Below are positions 546 to 44,541 of a stretch of 64,000 nucleotides of DNA, one piece after another. The DNA is from Planctomycetota bacterium (GTDB taxonomy: Bacteria > Planctomycetota > MHYJ01 > WSZJ01). A program made the translations under genes and the position numbers. The stretch is taken from contig JBBTCT010000022.1 of the NCBI GenBank assembly GCA_038060895.1, forward strand, positions 229,301 through 293,300, read 5' to 3'. Every line of letters starts with the position of its first letter. Within the stretch, counting starts at the first letter, position 1. A model generated the notes under the pieces. The model saw only the letters and a program-made list of their open reading frames with translations. It was not told the origin of the DNA and did no database searches.

Positions 546-2369
546 ATGAGTTCTGCTTCCTGCGCTTGGCAAGGCTCTGTCTCTTCCTTCCTGGAAACTT
601 CGGAGGAACGCGTCCTTTCCGATCTCACCGCGTTTCTGCGCGAAACCGGCGCGCCTCAGATCCTCGCCTGGGATCGCTCTCTCCGCGTCTTGCGAGACCA
701 GCTCCATACGTGTATGCCCGACGCCTCGAACTTCGCACTCGTCCTCGAATTCGAACTTCCGCGAAGCGGTGGCAGGCGCCCGGACTTGATCGTTCTGGAG
801 AACGGCCTCGTCCTCGTCATCGAATTCAAGAATCGCGTAACTGCGGAAGCGGCGGACCTCGCCCAGGTGAAGGGGTACGTGCGCGACCTCGAGGACTACC
901 ACGCCGCTTGCCGCGGCAAGACGCTCGTTCCGATCCTCGTGCCGATCGGGATGGAAGGGGAGCCCGAGGAGCGTGACGGCGTGCGCGTCGTCCCGTCGCG
1001 TCTGTTAGGCAGGGTGATTCGCGAGATCTCCAAAGGCGGCGAGGGGAAGCGCGGCGACGGGGAAGCGTTCGTTCTGGCACCATTTGAGCCTCTCCCCGCT
1101 CTTGTCGACGCCGCACGCCTACTATTCGAGCGCAAGCCTCTCCCTCGTATCAGAGCTGCCGAATCGGCACGCATCCCGGCGACGGTGGCCCGCCTCGAGC
1201 GGCTCGCTCGAGAAGTGCGCGGCACCGGAAGGCGGTCGCTCGCGCTTGTCTCGGGAGTGCCGGGAAGTGGCAAGACGCTTGTGGGTCTTCAACTGGTGCA
1301 CTCGCGCGACCTCGGTGTCCCGGCGGTGTTCCTCTCCGGAAACGGGCCGCTCGTCAACGTTCTCCAGTACGTCCTGGAGAACAAAGAGTTCGTGCGCGAC
1401 ATGAAGAAATTCATTCACGACCACCTCGTGCGTACGACCTCGGCGCCGCGGGAACACGTCGTTGTGTTCGACGAAGCGCAGCGAGCGTGGGACCGAGACC
1501 GTGTGCTCAAGAAGCATCGCGGGGCACTGGCGGACGGCGAGCCGGCTCTTCTCGCGAGGATTGCGACCAAGGTGAGCGACGGATTTGTGCTTGTCGCCCT
1601 GATCGGGACAGGGCAGGAGATCCATGAGGGAGAAGAAGGCGGGATTGCCCAGTGGGTGGGCGCGCTGAAAGAGGTCGGCGGGTGGGATGTGCTTGGACCC
1701 CCCGGGTACCGGGAGGAATTCGTGAAGGCCGGAATCGAATACACGGCGGATGACCTGCTTCATCTCACGGTAGCGCTTCGGAGTCACAGGGCGTCCGACA
1801 CGGCTCTGTGGGCCGGGCTCCTTCTTGAAGGTCGCCTGACCGAAGCGGCGAGCGTCGCTGCCGGCATGCGCGACAACAATTTCGAGATTCTCGGTTCACG
1901 ATCGCTGAACGCTCTTCGCGACTATGCGCGTGAGCGATACAGCAATGAGTCCGGAAAGAGGTTTGGGCTGGTGACTTCGTCGAGATTCCGAAATATCGAC
2001 GAGTACGGAGTGCGAACGCCACCCGCGAAATTCTTTCCGCATGGGCCGTGGTATGAGAGCCATCGTGACGATCCGAAATCCTGTTGTCGCCTCGAGGTCG
2101 CCGAAACGGAATTTGGATGCCAAGGACTGGAGCTAGACTTTCCGATCGTCTGCTGGGGACCGGACCTTGTCTGGCGCGGAGCTCACTGGGAAGTGGTGAT
2201 CAAGCGACGGAATCCCGACGTAAGGAATCCGGCCAAGCTGAGGCTCAACGCATACCGAGTCCTCCTGACGCGCGGCCGAGACGGCATGGCCGTGTTTGTG
2301 CCTCCTGGCCAAGCCGGAGACGCAACCTGGAGTGCACTCTTGGCGGGCGGGATCCGCGAACTGGCTTAG
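546..2369 (+). CDS. DUF2075-family protein: N-terminal PD-(D/E)xK-like nuclease motif fused to SF1-like P-loop ATPase
   Basis: Motifs PDLIVLE...VIEFK (D-E-K), Walker A GVPGSGKT, Walker B VVVFDEAQ; 607 aa single ORF. Confidence 0.75.
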   Translation: MSSASCAWQGSVSSFLETSEERVLSDLTAFLRETGAPQILAWDRSLRVLRDQLHTCMPDASNFALVLEFELPRSGGRRPDLIVLENGLVLVIEFKNRVTAEAADLAQVKGYVRDLEDYHAACRGKTLVPILVPIGMEGEPEERDGVRVVPSRLLGRVIREISKGGEGKRGDGEAFVLAPFEPLPALVDAARLLFERKPLPRIRAAESARIPATVARLERLAREVRGTGRRSLALVSGVPGSGKTLVGLQLVHSRDLGVPAVFLSGNGPLVNVLQYVLENKEFVRDMKKFIHDHLVRTTSAPREHVVVFDEAQRAWDRDRVLKKHRGALADGEPALLARIATKVSDGFVLVALIGTGQEIHEGEEGGIAQWVGALKEVGGWDVLGPPGYREEFVKAGIEYTADDLLHLTVALRSHRASDTALWAGLLLEGRLTEAASVAAGMRDNNFEILGSRSLNALRDYARERYSNESGKRFGLVTSSRFRNIDEYGVRTPPAKFFPHGPWYESHRDDPKSCCRLEVAETEFGCQGLELDFPIVCWGPDLVWRGAHWEVVIKRRNPDVRNPAKLRLNAYRVLLTRGRDGMAVFVPPGQAGDATWSALLAGGIRELA

Positions 2370-2374
2370 CGTTT

Positions 2375-2749
2375 TCAACCACGTTTTACAGTTCTTGCCG
2401 TCCGGACCCTGTGGACGACGGGAGGGGGGTCCGTTTTCGTGGCGTCGACTTGCCTGAACCTGCGTCGATCTCCTTTCGATTTCCTAGCCCAACTTTCGTC
2501 GGTCACCGACCAGTCGCCGTAGTACATGCCGTCGTAGTAGAGCAGGCACTCGCACGTCACCTGCAGGTCGGCGCTTGCGCACTCGTCTGGCTGCCCCTCA
2601 CCGTCGAGAGGACAGCACTTCAGGTCGCCCGCGTATGTCGTGTGGACGTAAGAGAGCGGACCGAGAATCGGGCCCTGTTCGCCCCAATCGTTGAGTTCTG
2701 ACCGATCGGTGGTCTCGGTTCCATGGAAGAGTTCGAGGTAGACGGGCAT
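2375..2749 (-). CDS. small hypothetical protein (Cys-rich)
   Basis: Strong RBS AAGGAGG immediately upstream of ATG on minus strand; convergent with DUF2075 gene. Confidence 0.45.
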   Translation of the reverse strand: MPVYLELFHGTETTDRSELNDWGEQGPILGPLSYVHTTYAGDLKCCPLDGEGQPDECASADLQVTCECLLYYDGMYYGDWSVTDESWARKSKGDRRRFRQVDATKTDPPPVVHRVRTARTVKRG

Positions 2750-2992: not shown

Positions 2993-3811
2993 GTGGCGGG
3001 TTATCCTGCAACTATGCGAGCGCCGGCCCACTACGAATACACCGGCCTCATGGCCCAATCCTGGGACCTTCTCCGCGGCGACACTTCCGCCTGGCCCGAC
3101 CGTGCGTTCTACCTCGAGGTCATCCGCCGGCACGGGCAGCCGGTGCTGGATGTCGGGTGCGGGACGGGGCGGCTGCTGCTGGATTTTCTCGCGCAAGGGA
3201 TCGACGTGGACGGGGTGGACAACTCACCGGAGATGCTGGCGTTGTTGCGGGAGAAAGCTCGGGTGGCGGGACTGCAACCGCGCGTCTACGAGCAGCCGAT
3301 GGAAGCGCTCTCGCTGCCGCGGCGCTACCGGACGATTCTCATTCCGTCGAGCTCGCTTCAGCTGGTCACGGACGTCGCGGCGGCCGGAGCGGCGCTGCGC
3401 GGGATGCGGTCGCTTCTCCCGGAAGGCGGCGTCCTGGTCGCGCCGTTCATGACGCTCTGGCACGAAGGCCAGCCGCTGGAGTCGGGGCGCGAGACGAGGG
3501 CGGTGCGGCCGGCGGACGGGGCGGTTTTCCGGCGGATCGAGAAGTGCCGCTTCGACCCGGCGAATGGATGCGAGCACACGGAGGACCGGTATGAGGTGAT
3601 CGTGGACGGCCGCGTGGTCGGGGAGGAGACGCACCGGCGGTCGCCGGCGACGCGGTCGTACACGCAGGAGGAGGCGCGGCGGCTGTTTCTGGAAGCGGGG
3701 TTCGCGGAGGTGACGGTGACCAGCGGGTTCAGGTTGGTCGCCGCGAAGGCGGACGACCTGTTGTTCTGCGTGACCGCGCTGGATTCGAGGGCCCGTCCCG
3801 GGATAAGCTGA
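2993..3811 (+). CDS. class I SAM-dependent methyltransferase (small-molecule type)
   Basis: Motif I VLDVGCGTGRLL, motif II DGVD; no DPPY/NPPY DNA-MTase motif; GTG start at 2993 or ATG at 3014. Confidence 0.75.
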   Translation: MAGYPATMRAPAHYEYTGLMAQSWDLLRGDTSAWPDRAFYLEVIRRHGQPVLDVGCGTGRLLLDFLAQGIDVDGVDNSPEMLALLREKARVAGLQPRVYEQPMEALSLPRRYRTILIPSSSLQLVTDVAAAGAALRGMRSLLPEGGVLVAPFMTLWHEGQPLESGRETRAVRPADGAVFRRIEKCRFDPANGCEHTEDRYEVIVDGRVVGEETHRRSPATRSYTQEEARRLFLEAGFAEVTVTSGFRLVAAKADDLLFCVTALDSRARPGIS

Positions 3812-8385: not shown

Positions 8386-10608
8386 GTGGGCAGGGAGCTC
8401 GAGATTCTCGCTGGACTCATGGCAGTCCAGCTGCGCCTCGTGCCGGGCCCCCGATTCATCCACGCCGGCGCGCAGACCGAATCGGACCCGACGAAACTCC
8501 TCACCCGGCGACTGGTCGAGGAACGGGACATCGGCGAAGCCGAAATGGCGTCGATTCTCATGCTGGCGTCGGGGCAGGTCCGGCAGCACGGCGGGGACGA
8601 GACCGCCGCCCTGGCCTCGGCGCCGATCGACCCGAAGCTCCTCGACGCGCTTCTGGAGTGCGGGCCGTCTCCGAAAATGAAAGGGTTGCTGCGGCTGCTG
8701 CGTCCCGCGGAAAAAGTCGGCACTTCGGTGCTGCCGGGGCACGCACCGAAGCTGTCGCTCATCGACACTTCGGAGCTGGACGACGTTCTCGGCGGCGGCG
8801 AAGTCGACCTGGAACAGGAGCTCCGCGGCGCGCGGCCGATGGGCGGCGGCCTGGCCATCCCCGCTTCCATTCCGGCGCCGACCGCGGAATCGGCCGAGGC
8901 GGACGACGTCCGCAGGGTTGAGCGCGCGCTGAAAACGTACGCGGATTCGCTGGCGGCGGCGCAGGGGCAGAAAGGGTTCCATGCCAGGGGGATGACGCGC
9001 GGCGTCTCGGAGTCGAACGTGACGGCGCTCGGGTCCGACCAGTCCGCGACCCGGGAAGCCAGGCAGAAAGCGGCGACCTTGTTCGAGGGATTGCGCAAGA
9101 CGATCGAGGAAGCGGTCGCGCGCCGGCCCGCGAACCGCGCCATCCGGCACGCCGCGGCGGAGTTCTACACGCGCGCGGCGAGCCAGCGCGAAATCGAGGG
9201 AGAGGCGGCGGCTTCTTCCGAACTCAAGGCCCGCGCCCGGCTGCTCGACACCTCCGTTCACTCCGCGGTCCGGCGCTCCGGGACGCTGGGCGTGCGGACC
9301 CGGGCGTTTTCCTGCGCGTGCGTGCGCGAGGGACGCGAGTTCGCGCCCGGCGCGCTGGCACTTCGCGGCCTGAGCCTGTTCACCGGCCTCCCCGCAGTCA
9401 AATCGCCCTCGAAAGTTCCGGGAGATTCCGGCGAATCGGATCGCCCCGTCCGGCTGAAGGCCCACGGGCCCGAGTGCGTTCCGGCGCCCCTTCCCGGAGC
9501 CGACGTCTGGCTCTTCCGGTACGACCTCGGCACGGATCACTCCACGCTCACGACGCCGAAGGACGTGGCCGGGCGCGGGACCGATCCGCTGCCGGTTCAT
9601 CTGCGCGAAGCGCTTTTTGCGAAGAACTCCCCGCACGCGCCGGAAGGGCCCGGCGTCCACCTCGGGAAGACGCCGGTGGAGGGCCTCGTCCTCCCCTCCG
9701 GTTCGTGGATGCTGCTGGTCTGGCAAGCCGGCCGCAATCCGGCGCGGGTGCCCGTGCGCACGGGCGTCAGCGGCGACACTTCCATCGACGTGACGCTGTC
9801 GCTCCCCACGGAAGTTCCGCCGAAGTTCGCTTCGATCGCCGAAGGAACGTTCCTGTACCAGGGGGACGTGAAGAACCCGCACTCGGAGCCCGGCCAGTCC
9901 GGATCGACGCACGAGTTCCTGCTGGCGAAGTACCCGGTCACCGCGAGGGAGTACGCCGAATTTCTGAACGCCCGCTGCCAGGCGGAACTCGACCTCGTCG
10001 TGCGCCGGAGCGCGCCGCGGGACGTGGAAAAGGCGACCACTCTCTGGCCCGGGCCTCCGTTTGCCGTGCCGACGGCGCAGGCCCTCGAGGCCGCGCCCGC
10101 GGAGTTCCGCGCCGCCGCGAAGAAACTCCCCGGCTGCACCGCCGACTGGAATGAACGGTGGCCGATCGTCTCGATTTCGTGGCGCGACGCGATGATGTTC
10201 TGCGAATGGAAGCGCGCCACCACGGGATGGCTCATGACGCTTCCCCACGAAATCGACTGGGAGAAAGCCGCCAGGGGAGTGGACGGGCGGACGTTTCCGT
10301 GGGGGCACGGCCTGAAGCAGGGCAACTGCAATACCGTCAGCGCGCGTCCCGACTCGGCCAGCCCCTCGGCCGTGGAGGAGTTCCCGGCCGACGAGTCGCC
10401 CTACGGCGTCTTCGGGCTCGGCGGGAACGCGCGCGACATGTGCCTCAACCAGCCCGGGCCGGAATTCGCCGGGCAGCGCGTCATGCGCGGCGGCTACTGG
10501 GCGAGCGACGGCCTCCGCTGCCACTCCAGCTACCGCACCTGCGCCAGGCAGGACCACGTTTCCGCGAACGGAGGCTTCCGGCTGATGTGCATCACACGGC
10601 TCTCCTGA
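8386..10608 (+). CDS. large protein with C-terminal FGE-sulfatase (SUMF1-like) domain
   Basis: C-terminal motifs WRLPTE/IDWEKAARG, RGGYWASDG, FRLMC typical of formylglycine-generating-enzyme fold; GTG start with RBS. Confidence 0.75.
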   Translation: MGRELEILAGLMAVQLRLVPGPRFIHAGAQTESDPTKLLTRRLVEERDIGEAEMASILMLASGQVRQHGGDETAALASAPIDPKLLDALLECGPSPKMKGLLRLLRPAEKVGTSVLPGHAPKLSLIDTSELDDVLGGGEVDLEQELRGARPMGGGLAIPASIPAPTAESAEADDVRRVERALKTYADSLAAAQGQKGFHARGMTRGVSESNVTALGSDQSATREARQKAATLFEGLRKTIEEAVARRPANRAIRHAAAEFYTRAASQREIEGEAAASSELKARARLLDTSVHSAVRRSGTLGVRTRAFSCACVREGREFAPGALALRGLSLFTGLPAVKSPSKVPGDSGESDRPVRLKAHGPECVPAPLPGADVWLFRYDLGTDHSTLTTPKDVAGRGTDPLPVHLREALFAKNSPHAPEGPGVHLGKTPVEGLVLPSGSWMLLVWQAGRNPARVPVRTGVSGDTSIDVTLSLPTEVPPKFASIAEGTFLYQGDVKNPHSEPGQSGSTHEFLLAKYPVTAREYAEFLNARCQAELDLVVRRSAPRDVEKATTLWPGPPFAVPTAQALEAAPAEFRAAAKKLPGCTADWNERWPIVSISWRDAMMFCEWKRATTGWLMTLPHEIDWEKAARGVDGRTFPWGHGLKQGNCNTVSARPDSASPSAVEEFPADESPYGVFGLGGNARDMCLNQPGPEFAGQRVMRGGYWASDGLRCHSSYRTCARQDHVSANGGFRLMCITRLS

Positions 10609-10660
10609 TGGCCCGTCCGGCGGCGCCTCCCTTGTCCGGCGCCTGGAGCAGGAGGTACGC

Positions 10661-12556
10661 TTGCAGACATCCATCAGCGGGGAAGCCGGCGATCCGCGCC
10701 GGGCGCTGGATTCAGGGGAAGCGGCGGTGACAGAGCAAGAGAATCCGGGCCGGTGCCGGAACTTCGTGAACGCCTGCCGTGAACGGCGGTCGGTGAAGGT
10801 CCTCGCCGCGGGGGTGTTCCTCCTCGCGGCCGCGTGGGTCGTGCAGATCGCCTCACAGCCCGAGGGCCCGCGCTTCCGCGAAGGCCTCGCTCTCTACGCG
10901 ACTCGCTTCTGGCCGCTTCTGGGAAGCGCCGCCGTGCTCTTCGCCGTGTGGGTCGCGCTGTGGGCCGCGACGCACCGCGCGAAGCTCTCGGCGGTCCTGC
11001 TCCTCGTGCTGTGGCTGCCGCCTGCGATCGCCAACGCGGCGAAGCTGGCGAGCCTCGACCTCCCGCTGATGCCGCTGGACGCGTACCGCACGGGGGACAT
11101 GCTGTCGATTTTTCACGCGGACCTCGTGCGGCCGGGGGGGTGGCTGAAGCTGTCGCTCCTGGTCGCGCTCACGGCGCCGCTCGTCATGGCATTCGCGGTG
11201 ATGCCGTCGCCGAAGACGCGGCCGCGCGTCCGCATCGCCGCCGGCGTGGCGGCCCTCGCGTTCCTGGGCTCGCTCTTTCTCCCGGCGACGAACGTCTTCG
11301 CGCAGCTCTCGGGACCGTTCACGCGCTACAGCTGGGACAGCCGCGGCACCCACGACCAGAACGGATTCGTCGTGTTTTTCGCCATGAACTGCCGGTACGT
11401 GAGGGTCGAAGAGCCGCGCGGCTACTCGGAGGAAGCGGTCGCGCGCATCATCCGCGAGCTGCCGCCGTCCACTGCGAAGACGAGCGGCCTCCGCCCGAAC
11501 GTCATCGTCGTCCTGAGCGAGTCGTTCAGCGACGTGACGCGCATCCCGGGCGTCGAATTCGAAACCGACCCGCTCCCGACCCTCCACGAACTCCAGCGCG
11601 ACTTCGGCCGCCTCGACCTCGTCAGCCCCGTCTACGCCGGCATCACGTGCAACGCCGAGCTCGAGATCCTCACCGGATTCAACATGCGCTTCTTCCCCGA
11701 ACCCTCCGCCGCCTGGGTCGATTCGATCCGCCGCCCGGTGCCGTCTCTCGCTTCCATCCTCCGCGGCCACGGATATCGCGCGATCTCGCTTCACGCCGCC
11801 GGCGGGTTCCACAACGACGCGCAGGTGCAGCCGCTTCTCGGTTTCGAAAAGTGCATTCCCGGAAGCGACTGGGTCAACCGCGACGCGATCGGCTGGCTCG
11901 TGACGGACGAAGCGGTGACGAAGGAGGTCATCCGCGTTTCGCGCGAGCTGCCGCGGCCGTGGTTCGTGTGCGTGAACACCATCGAGGGGCACGCGCCCTA
12001 CGACGGCAAGTACCCGGACCCGAAGTGCGGGATTCGCTTTACGAGGCCGCTCTCGGAGAAGTCGCGTGAGATTCTCGAAGGGTACGCGTACGGACTGAAC
12101 CGAGCCGACCGCGCGCTGCGCGCGCTCATCGACGGGTACCGCGACTCGCCCGAGCCCACGCTCATCCTGTTCTACGGCGACCACCTTCCCGACCTCGGCG
12201 AGAACTTCCTCGCCTGGAGCGAAACCGGTTTCCTCCCGCCCGGACAGGGAAGCTCCTCCCTCGCCATGCGCACCGTCCCCGCCGCGATCTGGAACAACTA
12301 CGGGAAGCGGCTTCCCGTGCTCAACGGTCCCGTCGGCATGTCGCGAGTCCTGCCGCTTCTCCTCGACGCGCTCGAGTTGCCGAAGCCGGCGCACGTGCGC
12401 GTCGTCGAGCAGGTGGGCGCCCGCTGGCCGGTCGTGAGCACCGCGGGATGCTTTGACGCCAGCGGGACCGGCGCGGACGCGGATCTCGCCGATTACTCCC
12501 TCATGCAGTACGACCTGCTGTTCGGCAAGCAGCACTTCCTGCAGGGCGGGCGCTGA
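10661..12556 (+). CDS. membrane-anchored sulfatase/phosphoglycerol-transferase (LtaS/MdoB-like) family protein
   Basis: Five N-terminal TM helices, then VVLSESFSD ... TCNAE alkaline-phosphatase-superfamily core; TTG start after GGAGG. Confidence 0.7.
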   Translation: MQTSISGEAGDPRRALDSGEAAVTEQENPGRCRNFVNACRERRSVKVLAAGVFLLAAAWVVQIASQPEGPRFREGLALYATRFWPLLGSAAVLFAVWVALWAATHRAKLSAVLLLVLWLPPAIANAAKLASLDLPLMPLDAYRTGDMLSIFHADLVRPGGWLKLSLLVALTAPLVMAFAVMPSPKTRPRVRIAAGVAALAFLGSLFLPATNVFAQLSGPFTRYSWDSRGTHDQNGFVVFFAMNCRYVRVEEPRGYSEEAVARIIRELPPSTAKTSGLRPNVIVVLSESFSDVTRIPGVEFETDPLPTLHELQRDFGRLDLVSPVYAGITCNAELEILTGFNMRFFPEPSAAWVDSIRRPVPSLASILRGHGYRAISLHAAGGFHNDAQVQPLLGFEKCIPGSDWVNRDAIGWLVTDEAVTKEVIRVSRELPRPWFVCVNTIEGHAPYDGKYPDPKCGIRFTRPLSEKSREILEGYAYGLNRADRALRALIDGYRDSPEPTLILFYGDHLPDLGENFLAWSETGFLPPGQGSSSLAMRTVPAAIWNNYGKRLPVLNGPVGMSRVLPLLLDALELPKPAHVRVVEQVGARWPVVSTAGCFDASGTGADADLADYSLMQYDLLFGKQHFLQGGR

Positions 12557-12559
12557 TGC

Positions 12560-12961
12560 CTAGGGCGGGCAAAGCAGCGGGATCGCTTCGCGTTTGTTCC
12601 TGCGATAGACATGAAAGTCGGTTCGGTCAGTCGTGATCACGATGTGGCGCGGGTACATCTCGCTCATGCGGATGAGGCAGAGATCGGCAAAATCGGGTTT
12701 CAAGTCGGCGTAACGCTTCGCCAGGGCTGCCAGCTGCGGAATATGCGCGCGGGATTCGAATGACGGAAGCACCAGGCCTTCCTCGATCATCGCCAGGACG
12801 ATGGCAGAGTCCTGTACGTGGAAGGCCGCTTCCGCAAGGACCGCATCGCAGGTGAGCAGCGGTTCCGTCATGCCTTCCGCCACGCTGACGGCCCAGTCGT
12901 GGTGCATGTCGTTCCGGCGGATGAAGGCGACGATGAAGCCGGTGTCGGCGATCCCCTTCAA
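12560..12961 (-). CDS. vapC: PIN-domain toxin VapC
   Basis: PIN acidic residues (D5, E.., D..); 4-bp overlap with upstream antitoxin. Confidence 0.8.
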   Translation of the reverse strand: MKGIADTGFIVAFIRRNDMHHDWAVSVAEGMTEPLLTCDAVLAEAAFHVQDSAIVLAMIEEGLVLPSFESRAHIPQLAALAKRYADLKPDFADLCLIRMSEMYPRHIVITTDRTDFHVYRRNKREAIPLLCPP

Positions 12962-13173
12962 TGCTTGCTGAAGCCCTTGCGCATCGAAAGGTCGCGAGGC
13001 CCTCCGCGGATGATGCCTGCGAGCCTCATGAATTTGCGTTGCTCGCCGGCCGCGCGAGCCTTCTCCAGCTGCTCGCGGACGAGACGGCCCTGTGAAATCC
13101 CGCTCCGGGCGGCGGCTTTTTCAAGCCAGTCGGCGAGGTCGGGGGTGAGGCGGATGGAGAGTGTACGACTCAT
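12958..13173 (-). CDS. vapB: VapB/CopG-like ribbon-helix-helix antitoxin
   Basis: 71-aa basic protein overlapping vapC start. Confidence 0.7.
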   Translation of the reverse strand: MSRTLSIRLTPDLADWLEKAAARSGISQGRLVREQLEKARAAGEQRKFMRLAGIIRGGPRDLSMRKGFSKH

Positions 13174-13342
13174 ATGGCAGAAGTGTACTCAGAGCGCGCG
13201 AAGAAGTCGAGTGCCGTCGGCGGTCGGACCTCGCTGCGCGACGCCGCCGAACGGCCGGCGTCGTCGCTTCGCTCGCCCCGACCGCTCGCCGTCACTCGAT
13301 TTCTTCGCGCGCTCTCACCTGGCCCGCACCGGTCAATGCGCC

Positions 13343-14929
13343 CTACTTTTCCGCCTCCAGCCGGACGGTCACGTTTTGCACCGATCGATCGCGGACTCTC
13401 AATTCCGCGCTCAACTTCTCTCCGTCCACTTCCCCCCACGCCACCAGGTCCAGCCGGTCCACGTCCTCGGAATCGAAGAGCAGGCTGAACCGCCCGTCCG
13501 CCCCGACGACGACGATGCCGGAGTCGGGGCGCTTGATGAGGGTGCAGACGCTCGCTCCCGCGCAGGGTTCGCCGTCGGGCTTGAGGACGACCCCGGCGAT
13601 GCGGAAGCCGGCGCGGAGGCGGACGACGAGTTCTTGCCCCTGGGGCTCGACGTTGCGGACGAGTCCCTTGACCCAGTCGATCGCGGCGGGGTCGTCGTCG
13701 GGAGGAGAGACCTCGACGAGCAGTTTCACGGGAGGGAGGCCGGTGAACGCGGCGACGCCGAGCTGATCCGTGACGCGGGCGCTGGCCGGGCTCTCGTAGA
13801 CTTCATAGAGCCGCACGGCCGCCGCGGCGACAGGCCCGCCCGTCGGCGATTCGACCTTGACCCGCAGCGTCCGGTCGAGCGGCTGCACCTGGAGCTGCAG
13901 GACGAGGTCGCGCGCGCCGGCGCTCACGCCGGGCAGCGAGCCGGTGACGCGGACCGGCCACGTGTCTTCCGCTTCCTGAAGCGCCGGCGCCTTCTCGCCG
14001 AAGTCGATCGCGAGCGTGACGGTTTCGCCTTCGGGGACGGTGGCTTCGAAGCGGCCCTCGGCGTCGGTTTTGGCCGTCGAGACCGTGTCCTTCCCCCGGA
14101 GAGTGGCGACGACGCCGCCCTTGAAGGGTCGCCCGCGAGGAGTCAGGACGACGCCTGAGGCGATGCCCGCATCCTCGAGCACGAAGCGCACGTCGTTGCC
14201 GTCGTCCGGGTACAGCTGCGTCTGCATCGGCAGCACGTAGCGGCGTCCGAAGGCGGGGGTTTCGACGACCTCGACCACGGGAAAGTCCCCGTACGACGTC
14301 AGCCGGGCGACGCCGAGCTCGTTGGTGGGGACGCACCCCTGCTTCGGGTCGTCGTTCGCGCGCTCCGACGAAACCACGACCTGCGCGCCGGCGACCGCGG
14401 CGCCGCGGGCGTCGACGACGGTCACGGTGATGATCCGCGCCTGCGGAAGGCGCAGTTCGAGGCCGTCGCGACTTCTTCCATCGGACAGGTCGAAGGGAAG
14501 CGTCACCACGCTTGCGGGGAAACGCAACGCGTCACCCGCCGAGAGGATTCCTGTGCTGGCGGGCAGGCCGTCAAACCGGAAAGCCCCGTCGGACCCTGTC
14601 TCCACGCCATTCATGAAGATGTCCGCAACCGATCTCGTCGAGCGAACCTGCACCAGGCAGCCGGCCGCGGCCGTCCCGTCGTGATTCAGCACCCGACCCG
14701 CGATGAAGAGTTTCCCGGCGGGCGCCGGAGCCCGCAGGCCCGTCGAACTTTCCTTCGGCGGGCTGCCTTCGCCGCCCTCGCCTGCCGCCGGCCTCTCGGG
14801 GCCCCGCGCCAGGTCCGCGGACGAGTCTTCGACAACGGGGCGCTCCGCCCCACGGAACCGGAGCCAGAGCCCGGCCGCCCCTGCCATCAGCAGGCAAAAG
14901 ACGACGCCGATGACAACGCGGTTCCGCAC
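13343..14929 (-). CDS. membrane-anchored protein with repeated carboxypeptidase-regulatory-like (Ig-like) domains
   Basis: N-terminal TM segment; repeated G-x-V-x-D-x-G-x-P-x-x-G-A-x-V motifs. Confidence 0.6.
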   Translation of the reverse strand: MRNRVVIGVVFCLLMAGAAGLWLRFRGAERPVVEDSSADLARGPERPAAGEGGEGSPPKESSTGLRAPAPAGKLFIAGRVLNHDGTAAAGCLVQVRSTRSVADIFMNGVETGSDGAFRFDGLPASTGILSAGDALRFPASVVTLPFDLSDGRSRDGLELRLPQARIITVTVVDARGAAVAGAQVVVSSERANDDPKQGCVPTNELGVARLTSYGDFPVVEVVETPAFGRRYVLPMQTQLYPDDGNDVRFVLEDAGIASGVVLTPRGRPFKGGVVATLRGKDTVSTAKTDAEGRFEATVPEGETVTLAIDFGEKAPALQEAEDTWPVRVTGSLPGVSAGARDLVLQLQVQPLDRTLRVKVESPTGGPVAAAAVRLYEVYESPASARVTDQLGVAAFTGLPPVKLLVEVSPPDDDPAAIDWVKGLVRNVEPQGQELVVRLRAGFRIAGVVLKPDGEPCAGASVCTLIKRPDSGIVVVGADGRFSLLFDSEDVDRLDLVAWGEVDGEKLSAELRVRDRSVQNVTVRLEAEK

Positions 14930-27574: not shown

Positions 27575-28015
27575 GTGAGCGGAAACGGCTGTTCCTTCTG
27601 GGCCCAGAACGTCTCCCCGGAGACGAGCTGGCCGATTTCCTCCGAAGCGCCGGCGGGGATGGACGGAATGTCCTGGTCGAGCGAGTGCGTCTGGGACGCG
27701 ATGTCCTTCCCGCAGGGAGTCCTGCAGGTCTCCGCGCCCGTCGAGATCCGGAACCCAAACAACACCGTGATCTTCTCCATCGTGATCATCGGCCAGAGCA
27801 GCGGGTCTCCTCAGCTCGCCATCGTATTCTCCGGCGCCAATTGTCCGGAGGGTCCCTACACCACGCTGAGCGGGCCGACCAACATCACGACCTTGGGCCT
27901 GCAGTTCCTAGGCGCCGTGACCGGAATCAGGTTCCCCTACGTCCGGGCAGAAGTCATGTCGTCGAACGGGAGTGCGGTGGCGGGGAGCGGGTGCTTTTGT
28001 GTCTCGGAAGCCTAA
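27575..28015 (+). CDS. hypothetical protein (Cys-containing, beta-rich)
   Basis: GTG start after GAGGAG RBS. Confidence 0.45.
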   Translation: MSGNGCSFWAQNVSPETSWPISSEAPAGMDGMSWSSECVWDAMSFPQGVLQVSAPVEIRNPNNTVIFSIVIIGQSSGSPQLAIVFSGANCPEGPYTTLSGPTNITTLGLQFLGAVTGIRFPYVRAEVMSSNGSAVAGSGCFCVSEA

Positions 28016-28173
28016 AGCCAGCGTTCGCTCGACAAACCAACCGTCCAAAGCGCCATCGGTGTAGCACATAACGAGAAGAGGTTTCGCGCGACTGTCTCTC
28101 ATCAAAGTCAAGTCAGAGCTCTCCAGCGCCTGACGGGTCTTCGAGTCGATTTTCCCTAGAGAAGGAGGTACCG

Positions 28174-28656
28174 ATGCCAGATCCAGAGATTGTGTCAATT
28201 GACGAAATCTTGCGTGCTAATGAGCTAAGGGATCCGCTGACCGGGGTCAGAACCGGCGGCACCGTGCTACACCCTGGCACTGGCGTGAAACTTCGGAAAG
28301 ATCGGCCTTCAGGATCCATTGGAATCAACTTGGACACAGGTCAATTGGAGATGCATGACTGGGGGCCGACCGTTGCTGGGCCCAGTACTGATTTCTCAAA
28401 GTTACCTGAACGAATCCGACTCTTTGGGGGAGAAACTGGCGACGGGCCCAGGGTGGGTCGTGACCCAAAGGAGTCTGAGGACCGTGGCGTGGAGATGCTG
28501 CTTCCGGAAGGCGTGAGAAAATTCGTCGCAGGAGATGCGCTGAAGGCAGGTATTGTCTCCATTTCCTTCGAGTTCGGAGGACCTTGGGGCCTTACCGTCA
28601 CGTTTGGAAGGCCGCCTGAGCCGGCTGGGGTCAGACGGAAGGACCTGGAGAAGTGA
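28174..28656 (+). CDS. hypothetical protein
   Basis: Strong RBS AAGGAGG 5 nt before ATG; lower-GC DNA. Confidence 0.55.
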   Translation: MPDPEIVSIDEILRANELRDPLTGVRTGGTVLHPGTGVKLRKDRPSGSIGINLDTGQLEMHDWGPTVAGPSTDFSKLPERIRLFGGETGDGPRVGRDPKESEDRGVEMLLPEGVRKFVAGDALKAGIVSISFEFGGPWGLTVTFGRPPEPAGVRRKDLEK

Positions 28657-28760
28657 CGCAATGCGAAACACGATCCATTTCTCGAAGTCGAGGACTGTCT
28701 GGGATGGGATGACTTCCCAGGAGCTAACCGCGCCTCCGTCGAAATCTCAGGAGCACGTCA

Positions 28761-29909
28761 ATGCGAACAGAAGCTTCTAGCGAACTGACTCATTCGTCAA
28801 GGTGGTGTCATCCAGTTACATTTGCACTTGCCTTGTTTCTTGGATGCGCCGCGGGTCAGGGCACCAACGAATCGAAGCCAGAAGAACCCAGGATTCACAA
28901 TTCGGTGGAATTGAGGGACTCGCAAGGGAGGATCCGGCTCTCGATCTGTCTGGATCAAGATGAGTGTCCTCAAATCATGCTATTTGATCCCGCCGGACAC
29001 CCTCGCTCGCGAATTGGACTAAGTTCGGAATTCGAACCCGTAATTCGTATGACGGGTTCGAACGGCGAGGATGCGGTTTCGCTTGGTTTGCGCGAGGATT
29101 CCCCCCAACTCCGGCTGGAGTGTGGCGAGGGACGAAGTGGTATTCGGATCCAGGCTGAAGCAACGCGAGGACCGGAGTTGACGTTGTCGGATGGCGATGG
29201 TTTGGAGCGCGCCCGACTGGCAATTGATCGTGGCGCCCCACAACTTTCGATGTTGGACCCTGGACTCAAGCCTCGCCTGTACCTTGGAACCGAGGTCTCG
29301 ACACCGGATAATTACGGACTCCGCGTCACCTCAGACGACGGCCTTTCCCGCGCGGAGGTTGGCACGACAAAAAACTCGCCGGCGTTCATCCTCGTTTCTG
29401 GAGGCGCTGGCGAATGGTCAGCGCTTGCAATGAGCCGTGGCGGGCACCCGCTGCTAAGCTTTGTCGATTCGACCGACATCGAACGAATTCGAGTCAGCTT
29501 GACGCCTCAACAGGAGTCCGAAGTAGCGCTTTGTAGCGCCGAAGGTCAGATTTCCGTTCTGGCAAGATGTCCGAAGTCGGGTTTCGGGTTGGTCAACTTG
29601 TCCGATGGCGATTCACCGACAGCCGTGTTTCTGGGGAAAGGTTCGTCCGGTGATGTCTTGGCCGGGATCGTTGATGCGGCGGGGTGTAGACGAGCGAGCT
29701 TGTCGCTAACCCCGGAGGACCGAGCTTACGCCTCCGTACAGGATTCGACCGCCTCCTCAGCCTTTCTGACGAACGATGGCAAAGGACTTTGCAAACTCGA
29801 GCTGAATCGAAAGGGAAAGACCAGACTGCTCGCGGGTTTTGACAAGACTGATACAGCATCCTTCATGTCGCTTGATTCGGAGGAAATCGAAACTTGGCGA
29901 TCAAAGTAG
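28761..29909 (+). CDS. repeat-containing lipoprotein
   Basis: Lipobox ALFLGCAAG; about eight roughly 24-aa repeats of the form P-x-L-x-L-x-D-x-G. Confidence 0.55.
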   Translation: MRTEASSELTHSSRWCHPVTFALALFLGCAAGQGTNESKPEEPRIHNSVELRDSQGRIRLSICLDQDECPQIMLFDPAGHPRSRIGLSSEFEPVIRMTGSNGEDAVSLGLREDSPQLRLECGEGRSGIRIQAEATRGPELTLSDGDGLERARLAIDRGAPQLSMLDPGLKPRLYLGTEVSTPDNYGLRVTSDDGLSRAEVGTTKNSPAFILVSGGAGEWSALAMSRGGHPLLSFVDSTDIERIRVSLTPQQESEVALCSAEGQISVLARCPKSGFGLVNLSDGDSPTAVFLGKGSSGDVLAGIVDAAGCRRASLSLTPEDRAYASVQDSTASSAFLTNDGKGLCKLELNRKGKTRLLAGFDKTDTASFMSLDSEEIETWRSK

Positions 29910-30203
29910 ACTGCGGGGCTGCCATTCTTCTACAGACAGGCTTCAGTAGATGCGGTCGGGCGTCTCGATGGGGTTGAGACGTCGGGTGTAGACGGTTTCG
30001 CGACGTTGTAGACGTCGTAGGGCGACTCTTCCGTTCGGACGGAGCCCAACACCTGGGCTTGCGGGACACCCCGAACCTCCGAACGCAAATCGCTTCGTCC
30101 ACATCCAATTTCCCCAGGAGTCTCATGCCCGCCTTGCTCCGCCTCCCCCGCCAATGCTAAAGTCGCCCTTCCGGGTAACCCAGGGCCCGGTTGAGGGCCT
30201 CTC

Positions 30204-44175: not shown

Positions 44176-44215
44176 AGAAAAACCCTCGGTCGTTGGCCGA
44201 GGGTGTACGTCGGTT

Positions 44216-44307
44216 GGAGAGGTGTCCGAGTGGCTTATGGTGCTGGTTTCCAAAACCAGTGAACGGTGGTGACACACCGTCCGAGGGTTCGACTCCCTCC
44301 CTCTCCG
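44216..44307 (+). tRNA. class-II tRNA, Ser-like body (acceptor GGAGAGG, G73) with anticodon CCA (reads UGG)
   Basis: Hand-folded: acceptor GGAGAGG/CCTCTCC, anticodon stem CTGGT/ACCAG, loop TTCCAAA, 23-nt variable arm with 6-bp stem ACGGTG/CACCGT, T-arm GAGGG-TTCGACT-CCCTC. Confidence 0.6.
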
Positions 44308-44325
44308 TTTTGCTGTTCTGAGGCT

Positions 44326-44420
44326 GGCCGGGTGGCGGAACTGGTTTACGCGCCCGACTTGGAATCGGGTGGTTGTCTCTTGACGGGGGCACCATGCGGG
44401 TTCGAATCCCGTCCCGGTCA
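44326..44420 (+). tRNA. class-II tRNA, Leu-like body (D-arm GGCGGAACTGGTTTACGCG, A73) with anticodon UGG (reads CCN)
   Basis: Acceptor GGCCGGG/CCCGGTC, anticodon stem CCCGA/TCGGG, loop CTTGGAA, long variable arm, T-arm GCGGG-TTCGAAT-CCCGT. Confidence 0.55.
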
Positions 44421-44541
44421 GTCTCATTTTTGAAAGATCGAAGCGCCTTTGCGAAGTGCTTGAGGCTGGCGCGTGTCAAAAGAATACAACAAGACTGGGT
44501 GCGTGTCAACTTGCGAAATTGACGCACCGCGCCAACTCTGA

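Follow-up and report, generated by a model that had tools for sequence, protein, structure and literature searches.

The DNA analysed here, referred to as the window, is a 64,000-nt stretch of a Planctomycetota bacterium MAG (assembly GCA_038060895.1, contig JBBTCT010000022.1, positions 229,301 to 293,300 of the forward strand). Close to its start lies a gene for a 607-aa protein, followed by a convergent small ORF and by a methyltransferase gene. The features of the locus, with coordinates given in the window and residue numbers in the 607-aa protein, are as follows:

546..2369, + strand: complete gene, stop codon included, of a predicted Nhi-like / PADLOC PDC-S41 nuclease-helicase (ORF of 607 aa; PDC-S41 match)
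546..1040, + strand: predicted PD-(D/E)xK nuclease domain, aa 1-165 (secondary structure of the model, Foldseek matches in the PDB)
747..878, + strand: RecB/Cas4-type catalytic signature D...ExK plus QxxxY (invariance in 44 homologs)
747-749, 783-785, 822-824, 828-830, 864-866 and 876-878, + strand: catalytic residues E68, D80, E93, K95, Q107 and Y111, respectively
1041..1229, + strand: helical linker between nuclease and motor, aa 166-228 (invariant F194, L199 and P200)
1236..2303, + strand: SLFN-g3_helicase (PF09848, formerly DUF2075), SF1-type motor, aa 231-586 (Pfam, E 4.2e-60)
1254..1277, + strand: Walker A / motif I, GVPGSGKT, aa 237-244 (G237, P239, G240, G242, K243 and T244 invariant)
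1470..1481, + strand: Walker B / motif II, DEAQ, aa 309-312, followed by an invariant RAWD (alignment of 44 homologs)
1605..1637, + strand: motif III-like block GxGQxIHxGEE, aa 354-364 (invariant residues)
2109..2279, + strand: motif V-like EFGCQGLELD, aa 522-531, and motif VI-like NAYRVLLTRGR, aa 568-578 (invariant residues)
2375..2749, - strand: convergent 124-aa ORF with five cysteines, starting 5 bp past the stop codon of the 607-aa gene
2993..3811, + strand: class I SAM methyltransferase (Pfam Methyltransf_25/11/12), about 600 bp from the nuclease gene

An earlier note on this DNA had reported the 607-aa ORF together with four quoted motifs; its exact coordinates were confirmed, as were the motifs, which lie at residues 79-85 (PDLIVLE), 91-95 (VIEFK), 237-244 (GVPGSGKT) and 305-312 (VVVFDEAQ). 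More than 7000 database proteins match the product at E <= 1e-5, many of them over its full length, and these homologs, together with the PF09848 match, exclude that the ORF arose by chance in a GC-rich genome. Because W8, G10, Q38 and W42, which all fall before residue 57, show no or almost no variation among 44 homologs, the correct start codon is, on this conservation, ATG 546. The NCBI annotation of an identical protein (P0001, 551 aa) begins instead at M57, whereby part of the nuclease domain is lost. The public annotation of a close relative, P0005, likewise starts 56 codons late and shortens the nuclease domain. The gene has an atypical codon composition, its GC3 being the lowest in the window (z = -2.45), and a scan for regulatory signals showed neither a consensus promoter nor a terminator, although its sigma-70 model may not suit this phylum. 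A full-length AlphaFold2 model of the protein was obtained with a pLDDT of 87.5 and a pTM of 0.83.

The PD-(D/E)xK character ascribed to the N-terminus by the earlier note is borne out by catalytic residues, family profiles and model fold alike. All six residues of the RecB/Cas4-type signature are invariant across 44 homologs of 41-84 % identity, so the catalytic D/E/K set (D80, E93 and K95), the absence of which the earlier note would have counted against its proposal, is in place. In the models the core runs through a1 (36-54), b1 (64-67), b2 (81-85), b3 (88-95), a2 (102-118) and b4 (126-133). Sub-threshold Pfam matches of the N-terminus are all to PD-(D/E)xK families, HSDR_N being hit in 20 of 23 family members, with an N-terminal score of 22.3-24.5 bits against a cutoff of 25.1. 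A PDB sequence search with the full 607-aa protein returned no meaningful match; with a profile of the N-terminal domain the PDB matches were marginal and to Hjc alone, the PD...ExK falling on the Hjc active-site motif. Foldseek, by comparison of an AlphaFold2 model of aa 1-205 (pLDDT 86.5) with the PDB, retrieved exclusively PD-(D/E)xK nucleases, namely VC1899, McrC, Card1, Can2, Cdn1, Bax1, Hjc, MspJI and PvuRts1I.

The linker, whose loop at aa 200-204 is of low confidence in the structure model, leads into the motor. What had been described as a DUF2075/SF1-like ATPase corresponds to PF09848 with invariant Walker A and B motifs. The blocks downstream of these are presumably SF1 motifs III, V and VI, a naming that we take from general knowledge of SF1 helicases; in the first of them G354, G356, Q357, H360, G362, E363 and E364 are invariant in 44 homologs. 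A helical insertion occupies aa 414-464. The top structural matches of the motor are human SLFN11 (E 2.8e-10) and SLFN14, followed by Upf1, RecD2, Dna2 and nsp13. The epithet 'Schlafen-like' used in the earlier note therefore holds for the helicase domain alone: PF09848 is common to the 607-aa protein and the human Schlafen group 3 (SLFN11, SLFN14, SLFN5 and SLFN13), with antiviral roles on both sides, whereas the AlbA_2-type tRNase core of Schlafen proteins is absent here according to Pfam, with the PD-(D/E)xK fold in its place. Bacterial Schlafen defence proteins are defined by the RNase domain and not by a PF09848-type helicase (PMC13056530). The ResIII/Helicase_C motor of Type I HsdR is absent from the 607-aa protein (Pfam), and neither HsdM nor HsdS is encoded next to the gene or elsewhere in the window and its upstream stretch.

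A PADLOC search, one of the checks proposed in the earlier note, matched the PDC-S41 model along practically the whole protein (E 1.2e-127; aa 6-596 on positions 4-634 of the 657-position profile). PDC systems go back to genes found inside BREX, DISARM or Type I R-M loci; the name PDC-S41 does not occur in the accessible portion of the supplements of the PADLOC guilt-by-embedding preprint. The protein is also homologous to Nhi-like SG141 (Bacillus cereus FSL H8-0482), which is described as defending on its own, pairs a nuclease at the N-terminus with a DUF2075 domain and is listed as 'Verified' (Millman et al. 2022, 10.1101/2022.05.11.491447). The two align colinearly over aa 5-374 with 34 % identity (E 2e-67; 385 residues aligned, out of the 399 of SG141 available in the supplement of that preprint). 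A plasmid-encoded B. cereus protein that shares 96 % identity with SG141 covers 98 % of the 607-aa protein (E 1e-73) and itself matches PDC-S41 (E 1.2e-113). By these comparisons PDC-S41, an untested candidate in PADLOC, is the same family as the verified Nhi-like system, such that a PDC-S41 call may be taken to mean Nhi-like, and the product of 546..2369 is, on its sequence, a divergent planctomycete member of this already validated family. The earlier note had rightly proposed a candidate stand-alone defence protein without recognising that the family was named and validated in 2022; the gene is thus not new in kind.

Likeness to Nhi-like SG141 consists of full-length colinear homology (607 vs 611 aa), the same D...ExK block (RRPD, then IEFK here vs IECK in B. 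cereus), Walker A/B motifs and a GEGQEI-x-GEEGG block in common, and a single-gene organization with no conserved partner. The differences are an overall identity of only 31-34 % to the verified protein, a Planctomycetota MAG as host vs a Bacillus megaplasmid, a defence role that is predicted here vs verified there, the lack of a local defence island, and a 124-aa ORF that accompanies the gene in the planctomycete sub-lineage.

Of 185,579 species representatives, at least 509 have a relative; these are scattered patchily over more than 20 phyla including archaea, and relatives also occur in 50 plasmid records. The Nhi-like family reaches Planctomycetota and archaea, its catalytic residues all being kept. 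On the Exiguobacterium plasmid pCXA a homolog is flanked by a Type I R-M system with an HNH gene on one side and by McrBC on the other. Gene context varies even among relatives of 69-84 % identity. The 141 immediate neighbours include DUF3427 (three), mREase_IV (three), a McrA-like HNH, NUDIX_4 (four) and ResIII (four), counts that rest on crude ORF calling with no background control and make the association with defence genes a qualitative one; the genes that adjoin the family are for the most part metabolic and unrelated to it. The idea of a partner common to the whole family was rejected, the best neighbour cluster occurring in just 9 of 80 loci. Since the family is patchy over more than 20 phyla and variable in context, matches PDC-S41 and includes a verified Nhi-like homolog, it behaves as an accessory defence gene rather than as the housekeeping gene conserved across the phylum that the earlier note had named as the finding to watch for.

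The same observations bear on the view that the protein is a housekeeping DNA repair or recombination enzyme acting, in the manner of Dna2 or AddAB, on host DNA, at its ends or at forks that have stalled, and not on phage DNA. Dna2, RecD2 and Upf1 are indeed among the structural matches of the motor, the QxxxY nuclease signature is that of RecB/Cas4-type end resection, and the flanks in the window are ordinary chromosomal genes. A repair function would nevertheless be hard to reconcile with so scattered an occurrence among phyla, a context that shifts between relatives of 69-84 % identity, the atypical codon composition of 546..2369, the plasmid-borne relatives within defence islands and the verification of one family member for phage defence, and we regard it as very unlikely. 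As to the surroundings, the region upstream of the window was reached through an identical small ORF, P0121 (L087; 100 % identity over 6.5 kb). Window and upstream region together carry chromosomal genes of an ordinary kind plus a ParE toxin module; neither the window nor the 7.5 kb upstream showed a defence island, an integrase or an R-M system. The PADLOC matches in the window that might have indicated a defence island were discarded as generic Ser/Thr kinases on PD-T4-6 models. Motif-level reading has in this case recovered a predicted defence gene that has no such island around it.

The methyltransferase gene at 2993..3811 would be of consequence if the nuclease-helicase were the restriction half of an R-M pair. 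The two genes are about 600 bp apart, the arrangement is kept at the locus of the closest relative (L083), and the PADLOC mad2 model matches the methyltransferase partially (E 2e-14), over the SAM-binding region only. With family models, however, its product matches no DNA-methyltransferase family; its matches to daptide, CpaM and UbiE-like models are weak and all far below cutoffs, of a small-molecule/RiPP type. Its GC3 of 0.86 is host-like, unlike that of the nuclease gene. It is missing beside the 82 % relative (L084), and the other 80 loci hold no close counterpart, two of them (L008 and L014) having weak generic class I matches of about 31 % over 110-140 aa (E 3e-4 to 6e-4). The verified family member, moreover, works without a methyltransferase. 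A pairing of this kind is accordingly extremely improbable, in agreement with the earlier note, which had seen a methyltransferase devoid of DNA-methyltransferase motifs and no classical R-M pair; the enzyme falls into generic or small-molecule families and, those two weak matches aside, accompanies the nuclease gene elsewhere only in the closest relative.

More thought is due to the convergent 124-aa ORF. It is a real gene, having a 72 % identical counterpart in L083 and being present in L084 as well, and its GC3 of 0.71 is atypical and, with that of 546..2369, the lowest in the window. The earlier note had described it as a small Cys-rich convergent gene; position, orientation and the five cysteines stand, but the cysteines are not conserved in its family. 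One could picture a two-gene module in which the small protein serves the DUF2075 protein as regulator, antitoxin-like inhibitor or sensor, so that the latter would not truly stand alone in this lineage. The pair does stay together in the window, L083 and L084 despite different flanks, and it recurs at L088 in a different orientation, where identity is 63 % between the small proteins and only 32 % between the DUF2075 proteins. In L084, on the other hand, an HNH_2 cassette lies between the two genes, and the L088 copy of the small protein lacks the family-invariant W22, W80 and V82. Among 80 other, metagenome loci of the small-protein family none has a DUF2075 neighbour, by which we rejected the small protein as a general partner of the family; conversely, homologs of the small protein are missing from all of 80 genome loci that carry the DUF2075 family. 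The verified B. cereus protein also functions from one cloned gene. The usual neighbours of the small-protein family are ThiF-like, DnaN-like, ligase and ParB genes, perhaps a PRTRC cassette (the ParB best matching PRTRC_parB, but at 142 bits against a cutoff of 278.6, the ThiF match being generic), and such a cluster suggests a mobile-element fragment rather than a partner. We therefore consider a two-gene module unlikely; the 124-aa ORF was probably co-acquired with the defence gene and is not an established component of the system.

The reading that we favour, and hold to be probable, is that 546..2369 specifies an anti-phage nuclease-helicase contained in one polypeptide and belonging to the Nhi-like family (PDC-S41). 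The ATP-driven Schlafen group-3 (DUF2075) SF1 motor would engage foreign DNA, and the attached RecB-like PD-(D/E)xK nuclease would nick or degrade the engaged DNA, so that accumulation of phage DNA would be stopped; a methyltransferase or another partner would be unnecessary. The planctomycete copy may be expressed and protective. Nuclease and helicase activities can be predicted for it by analogy with Nhi of Staphylococcus epidermidis (SERP2475, 606 aa), a single-gene protein of the same size that combines a PD-(D/E)xK HsdR-like domain of about 230 aa with a DUF2075 SF1 helicase. In vivo, Nhi requires both nuclease and helicase motifs; its N-terminal 230 aa act as a 3'-5' exonuclease and nickase, activities nearly absent in the full-length protein, which unwinds DNA bidirectionally (Bari et al. 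2022, bioRxiv 10.1101/776245). The transfer of this biochemistry rests on common architecture and not on demonstrated homology: Nhi belongs to a different sequence family, its PADLOC model matching only the P-loop at aa 230-317 (E 0.002), and no sequence identity is reported between Nhi and Nhi-like (Millman et al. 2022, 10.1101/2022.05.11.491447).

The two systems also differ in how phages escape them, through the phage SSB in the case of Nhi and through loss of a phage cytosine methylase in that of Nhi-like, SPbeta escapers of the latter carrying deletions or frameshifts in mtbP. Since SPbeta escapes by losing this methylase and Type IV restriction genes recur near family members, one may guess that the trigger is modified, for instance C5-methylated, phage DNA, an idea that we offer tentatively. 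With Type IV enzymes (McrBC, McrA and DUF3427-type enzymes such as McaZI) the 607-aa protein shares the combination of nuclease and NTPase, the lack of a cognate methyltransferase and mutual neighbourhood, DUF2075 NTPases adjoining McaZI (Lutz et al. 2019, PMC6765204). It differs in its SF1 helicase, as opposed to an AAA+ GTPase, and no modified-base reader domain of the SRA, PUA or DUF3427 type is recognisable in it by Pfam. A bolder and rather doubtful proposal is that Nhi-like/PDC-S41 proteins form a very widespread ATP-driven, Type IV-like restriction class that reads modified phage DNA by an unrecognised element, either the conserved N-terminal helices or the insertion at aa 414-464, and that in the planctomycete sub-lineage a small modulator derived from a mobile element has been co-mobilised with the gene. 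Such a class would account for the methylase-loss escapers and for the McrA-like, DUF3427 and NUDIX_4 neighbours; the recurrence of these and of mREase_IV genes beside the family, the McrA-like neighbour being of the HNH type, fits escape by methylase loss and suggests a modification-dependent mechanism that can be put to the test.

On the evidence of its sequence, the 607-aa product of the gene below is a divergent member of the Nhi-like (= PDC-S41) family, a family already named and experimentally validated, to which the planctomycete copy adds a new member with a predicted role in phage defence.

546..2369, + strand: Nhi-like gene, 607-aa ORF with an ATG start (ORF listing)

At a GC content of 65 %, long spurious ORFs are frequent in the window and several overlap this one; it is nonetheless a real ORF, since its product has more than 7000 matches at E <= 1e-5 among clustered database proteins, dozens of them full-length with 41-84 % identity. 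An identical protein from an NCBI Planctomycetota MAG (P0001), labelled 'DNA/RNA helicase domain-containing protein', is annotated with 551 aa and begins at M57. Translation starts at ATG 546, and the annotated version lacks part of the nuclease domain, because W8, G10, Q38 and W42, all N-terminal to M57, are conserved in an alignment of 44 homologs. The M57 start (551 aa) recurs in P0005, an annotated 84 % relative; the DNA affected is 546-713 in the window and 5044-5211 in L083, the locus of an 84 %-identical relative, and 56 conserved residues are lost, nuclease helix a1 among them.

The PADLOC check proposed in the earlier note returned a full-length match to PDC-S41 (E 1.2e-127; PADLOC-DB), with the Nhi and AbiO models matching at the P-loop level only. 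PDC entries are candidate systems that go back to genes found inside loci of BREX, DISARM or Type I R-M (10.1101/2024.01.29.577857). The S. epidermidis protein Nhi, of 606 aa, joins a PD-(D/E)xK nuclease to a DUF2075 helicase (10.1101/776245), and Nhi-like, a stand-alone defensive protein, shares this organisation with zero sequence identity reported (Millman et al. 2022, 10.1101/2022.05.11.491447). Our comparison sequence was the verified Nhi-like protein SG141 of Bacillus cereus FSL H8-0482 (611 aa), residues 1-399 of which are printed in the supplement of Millman et al. 2022. By BLASTP the window protein is 34 % identical to it (E 2e-67), colinear over residues 5 to 374, and the alignment spans RRPD...IE(F/C)K, GxPGxGKT, FDEAQRAWD and GxGQEIxxGEEGG. 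WP_313755532.1, a B. cereus megaplasmid protein 96 % identical to SG141, aligns with 98 % of the window protein (31 % identity, E 1e-73) and itself matches PDC-S41 (E 1.2e-113). PDC-S41 and Nhi-like are thus a single family, to which the window protein belongs as a divergent member.

The earlier reading of the protein as a PD-(D/E)xK nuclease fused to a DUF2075/SF1-like ATPase held for both halves. The motifs it had quoted lie at aa 79-85 (PDLIVLE), 91-95 (VIEFK), 237-244 (GVPGSGKT) and 305-312 (VVVFDEAQ). PF09848 (SLFN-g3_helicase, formerly DUF2075) covers aa 231-586 (E 4e-60; Pfam), and HSDR_N falls just under threshold at aa 58-115. Invariant across the 44 sequences are the Walker A residues G237, P239, G240, G242, K243 and T244, Walker B with its extension (D309-E310-A311-Q312-R-A-W-D), and the blocks G354-x-G-Q357-x-x-H360-x-G-E-E364, E522-F-x-x-Q-G-L-E-x-D531 and N568-x-Y-R-V-L-x-x-R-G-R578, which we take to be SF1 helicase motifs III, V and VI. 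The N-terminus does not lack catalytic residues: E68, D80, E93, K95, Q107 and Y111 are likewise invariant, and form the D...ExK + QxxxY signature of RecB/Cas4-type PD-(D/E)xK nucleases. When 23 N-domains were scanned singly against Pfam, the sub-threshold matches were exclusively to PD-(D/E)xK families (HSDR_N in 20, then VRR_NUC, Hjc, MmcB, NERD and PDDEXK_3), and a profile search of PDB sequences aligned RPD...EFK onto the Hjc catalytic motif.

A confident full-length AlphaFold2 model built from the 44-homolog alignment (pLDDT 87.5, pTM 0.83) retrieved human SLFN11 (E 2.8e-10) and SLFN14 at the top of a Foldseek search of the PDB, followed by the SF1B helicases Upf1, RecD2, Dna2 and nsp13. 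Modelled separately, aa 1-205 (pLDDT 86.5) follow the canonical alpha-beta-beta-beta-alpha-beta order: D80 sits where b2 begins, b3 holds E93 and K95, and the next helix carries Q107 and Y111. PDB matches of this model were exclusively PD-(D/E)xK nucleases (VC1899/Card1-like, McrC, Cdn1, Can2, R.BspD6I, R2 endonuclease, Bax1, Hjc, arenavirus endonucleases, MspJI and PvuRts1I), at modest E-values (7e-4 to 4e-2) and mostly high probabilities.

The gene does not behave like a housekeeping function shared by the whole phylum. At least 509 of 185,579 species representatives (one genome per species) carry a relative, and those listed are scattered over Planctomycetota, Cyanobacteria, Chloroflexota, Actinomycetota, Bacillota, Bacteroidota, Proteobacteria, Acidobacteriota, Deinococcota and Elusimicrobia, with Bathyarchaeia and Methanobrevibacter as archaea among the matches listed. 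Fifty plasmid records encode a relative; on the mobilizable Exiguobacterium plasmid pCXA it has Type I R-M genes and an HNH endonuclease on one side and an McrBC pair on the other. L083 shares with the window a syntenic block of ~3.5 kb (Nhi-like gene, small ORF, methyltransferase and ~92-aa ORF), beyond which the flanks differ on both sides; the relatives in L084 (82 %) and L085 (69 %) have unrelated contexts. The GC3 of the Nhi-like gene (0.709) is the lowest of the 46 window genes analysed (mean 0.841, SD 0.054; z = -2.45). Scattered distribution, plasmids, changing contexts and low GC3 fit horizontal acquisition and, with the homology to verified Nhi-like and the full-length PDC-S41 match, support the interpretation as a stand-alone defence protein. 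L083, from the contig of the closest relative, also encodes at 12267-14027 a restriction-endonuclease-like protein (NOV_C) and a PIN_3/HicB-like pair; they follow the Nhi-like gene at a distance of about 5-7 kb, on its downstream side, and are all absent from the window.

The convergent small ORF (124 aa), with the second lowest GC3 (0.712), belongs to a family whose members include:

window 2375-2749, - strand: small ORF
L083 6943-7329: small-ORF homolog
L084 11133-11525: small-ORF homolog
L088 5001-5378: small-ORF homolog
L090 5001-5366: small-ORF homolog

It had been described as a Cys-rich gene. The gene is real, being 72 % identical in L083 and present in L084; the cysteines are not conserved in the family (117 proteins, ~100-125 aa, without Pfam match), the core of which reads VYLELFHGR..DWG..GPILGP..YVHTTYA...LYYDG.YYGDWSV. 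In L084 the Nhi-like gene and the small ORF are separated precisely by a 1.3-kb insertion (9864-11092; two small ORFs and an HNH_2 protein), and a PRiA4_ORF3 plasmid-type gene comes next. The spacer between the two genes has the look of a hotspot for insertions. The family adjoins PDC-S41 proteins in four loci, and these proteins share only 32 % identity with each other; in L088 a PDC-S41 gene, its product only 32 % identical to the window protein, has a 63 % homolog of the small ORF immediately upstream. Such a pairing with so divergent a partner is suggestive of a two-gene module of Nhi-like protein and small ORF product, but none of 80 metagenome loci of the small-ORF family has a DUF2075 neighbour, and we consider a module improbable. 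The usual neighbours are ThiF-like, DnaN-like, ATP-ligase, ParB_N and C5 DNA-methylase genes, a mobile-element-like cluster resembling a PRTRC cassette, though below curated cutoffs. In our reading the small ORF is probably a piece of mobile-element DNA acquired along with the Nhi-like gene, not a part of the system; for its family, a function in regulation or anti-defence is conceivable.

The methyltransferase (2993..3811, + strand) matches generic class I or small-molecule families only, has a host-like GC3 (0.86) and is syntenic in L083 only (70 % identity). Among the other 80 loci no close counterpart was found, and weak generic class I matches occurred only in L008 and L014 (E 3e-4 to 6e-4). 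An R-M pair with this enzyme was accordingly rejected, in line with the earlier view that the two genes are no classical R-M pair.

A survey of 80 genome loci by crude ORF calling and all-against-all BLAST (up to 4 neighbours per side) found no conserved partner gene. The most frequent neighbour cluster (9/80 loci) comprises NUDIX_4 hydrolases and HNH proteins of ~270 aa, the latter with homology to McrA of E. coli (6ghc, E 5.5e-23) and to ScoMcrA. Both kinds repeatedly sit directly beside Nhi-like genes:

L011 11948-13477: McrA-like HNH / NUDIX_4
L013 9427-9942: McrA-like HNH / NUDIX_4
L021 11845-12666: McrA-like HNH / NUDIX_4
L022 11914-12387: McrA-like HNH / NUDIX_4
L036 11904-13111: McrA-like HNH / NUDIX_4
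L054 8071-9973: McrA-like HNH / NUDIX_4, fused into one protein
L016, L017 and L052: McrA-like HNH / NUDIX_4

We speculate that a NUDIX enzyme beside a modification-dependent nuclease could sanitise modified dNTPs. The 141 immediate neighbours of 46 loci include DUF3427 (three), mREase_IV (three; PADLOC, best E 8e-187), ResIII/DEAD helicases (four), extra DUF2075 paralogs (three) and PDC-S07 matches (four); the majority are unrelated, and the association with restriction-type neighbours is qualitative. This association agrees with the adjacency of DUF2075 NTPases to the modification-dependent enzyme McaZI noted by Lutz et al. 2019 (PMC6765204).

In Nhi, nuclease and helicase motifs are both required in vivo; its N-terminal 230 aa act as 3'-5' exonuclease and nickase, activities nearly absent in the full-length dimer, which unwinds DNA from either overhang (10.1101/776245). 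For the window protein, the analysis shows the domain architecture, the conserved active sites, the place in the family and the accessory behaviour. Its homology to verified Nhi-like and its Nhi-like layout further suggest that it probably works as an ATP-dependent nuclease-helicase under autoinhibition, which would degrade phage DNA. The trigger of Nhi involves phage replication intermediates and SSB. SPbeta escapes Nhi-like via deletion or frameshift of the C5 cytosine methylase mtbP (10.1101/2022.05.11.491447). Taken with the neighbouring Type IV restriction and NUDIX genes, this escape route suggests that modified DNA is what is recognised; as no known modified-base reader domain was detectable in the window protein, we hold this trigger to be possible but somewhat doubtful.

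The Nhi-like gene is isolated here, since no defence island was found in the 64-kb window or the 7.5 kb upstream. The other 60 kb carry what is usual for a planctomycete chromosome: Ser/Thr kinases, FGE-sulfatase proteins, Hsp70/GrpE and QueA, besides a sigma-54 activator and a single IS1595 transposase; PADLOC gave generic kinase matches only. The upstream 7.5 kb, read from the identical contig L087, hold small ORFs, the gene of a zf-CDGSH protein, a ParE toxin module and, adjoining the ParE_toxin pair, a fusion of Ser/Thr kinase and FGE-sulfatase (1166 aa). Further features are:

L087 8213-8703: 81-aa ORF and ParE_toxin gene, ~2.1-2.6 kb upstream of window position 1
28174-28656: 160-aa ORF
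28761-29909: 382-aa ORF, apparent signal or lipoprotein-like N-terminus
44215-44421, + strand: adjacent tRNA-Trp(CCA) and tRNA-Pro(TGG) (Rfam)

The two ORFs at 28174-29909 lie in a GC dip (28001-30000; 0.563 vs ~0.66 for the window) that may be another horizontally acquired patch. Both tRNAs measure 92-97 nt but align with all 71 positions of the Rfam tRNA model, so each has ~20 nt inserted, an unusual feature in these isoacceptors.
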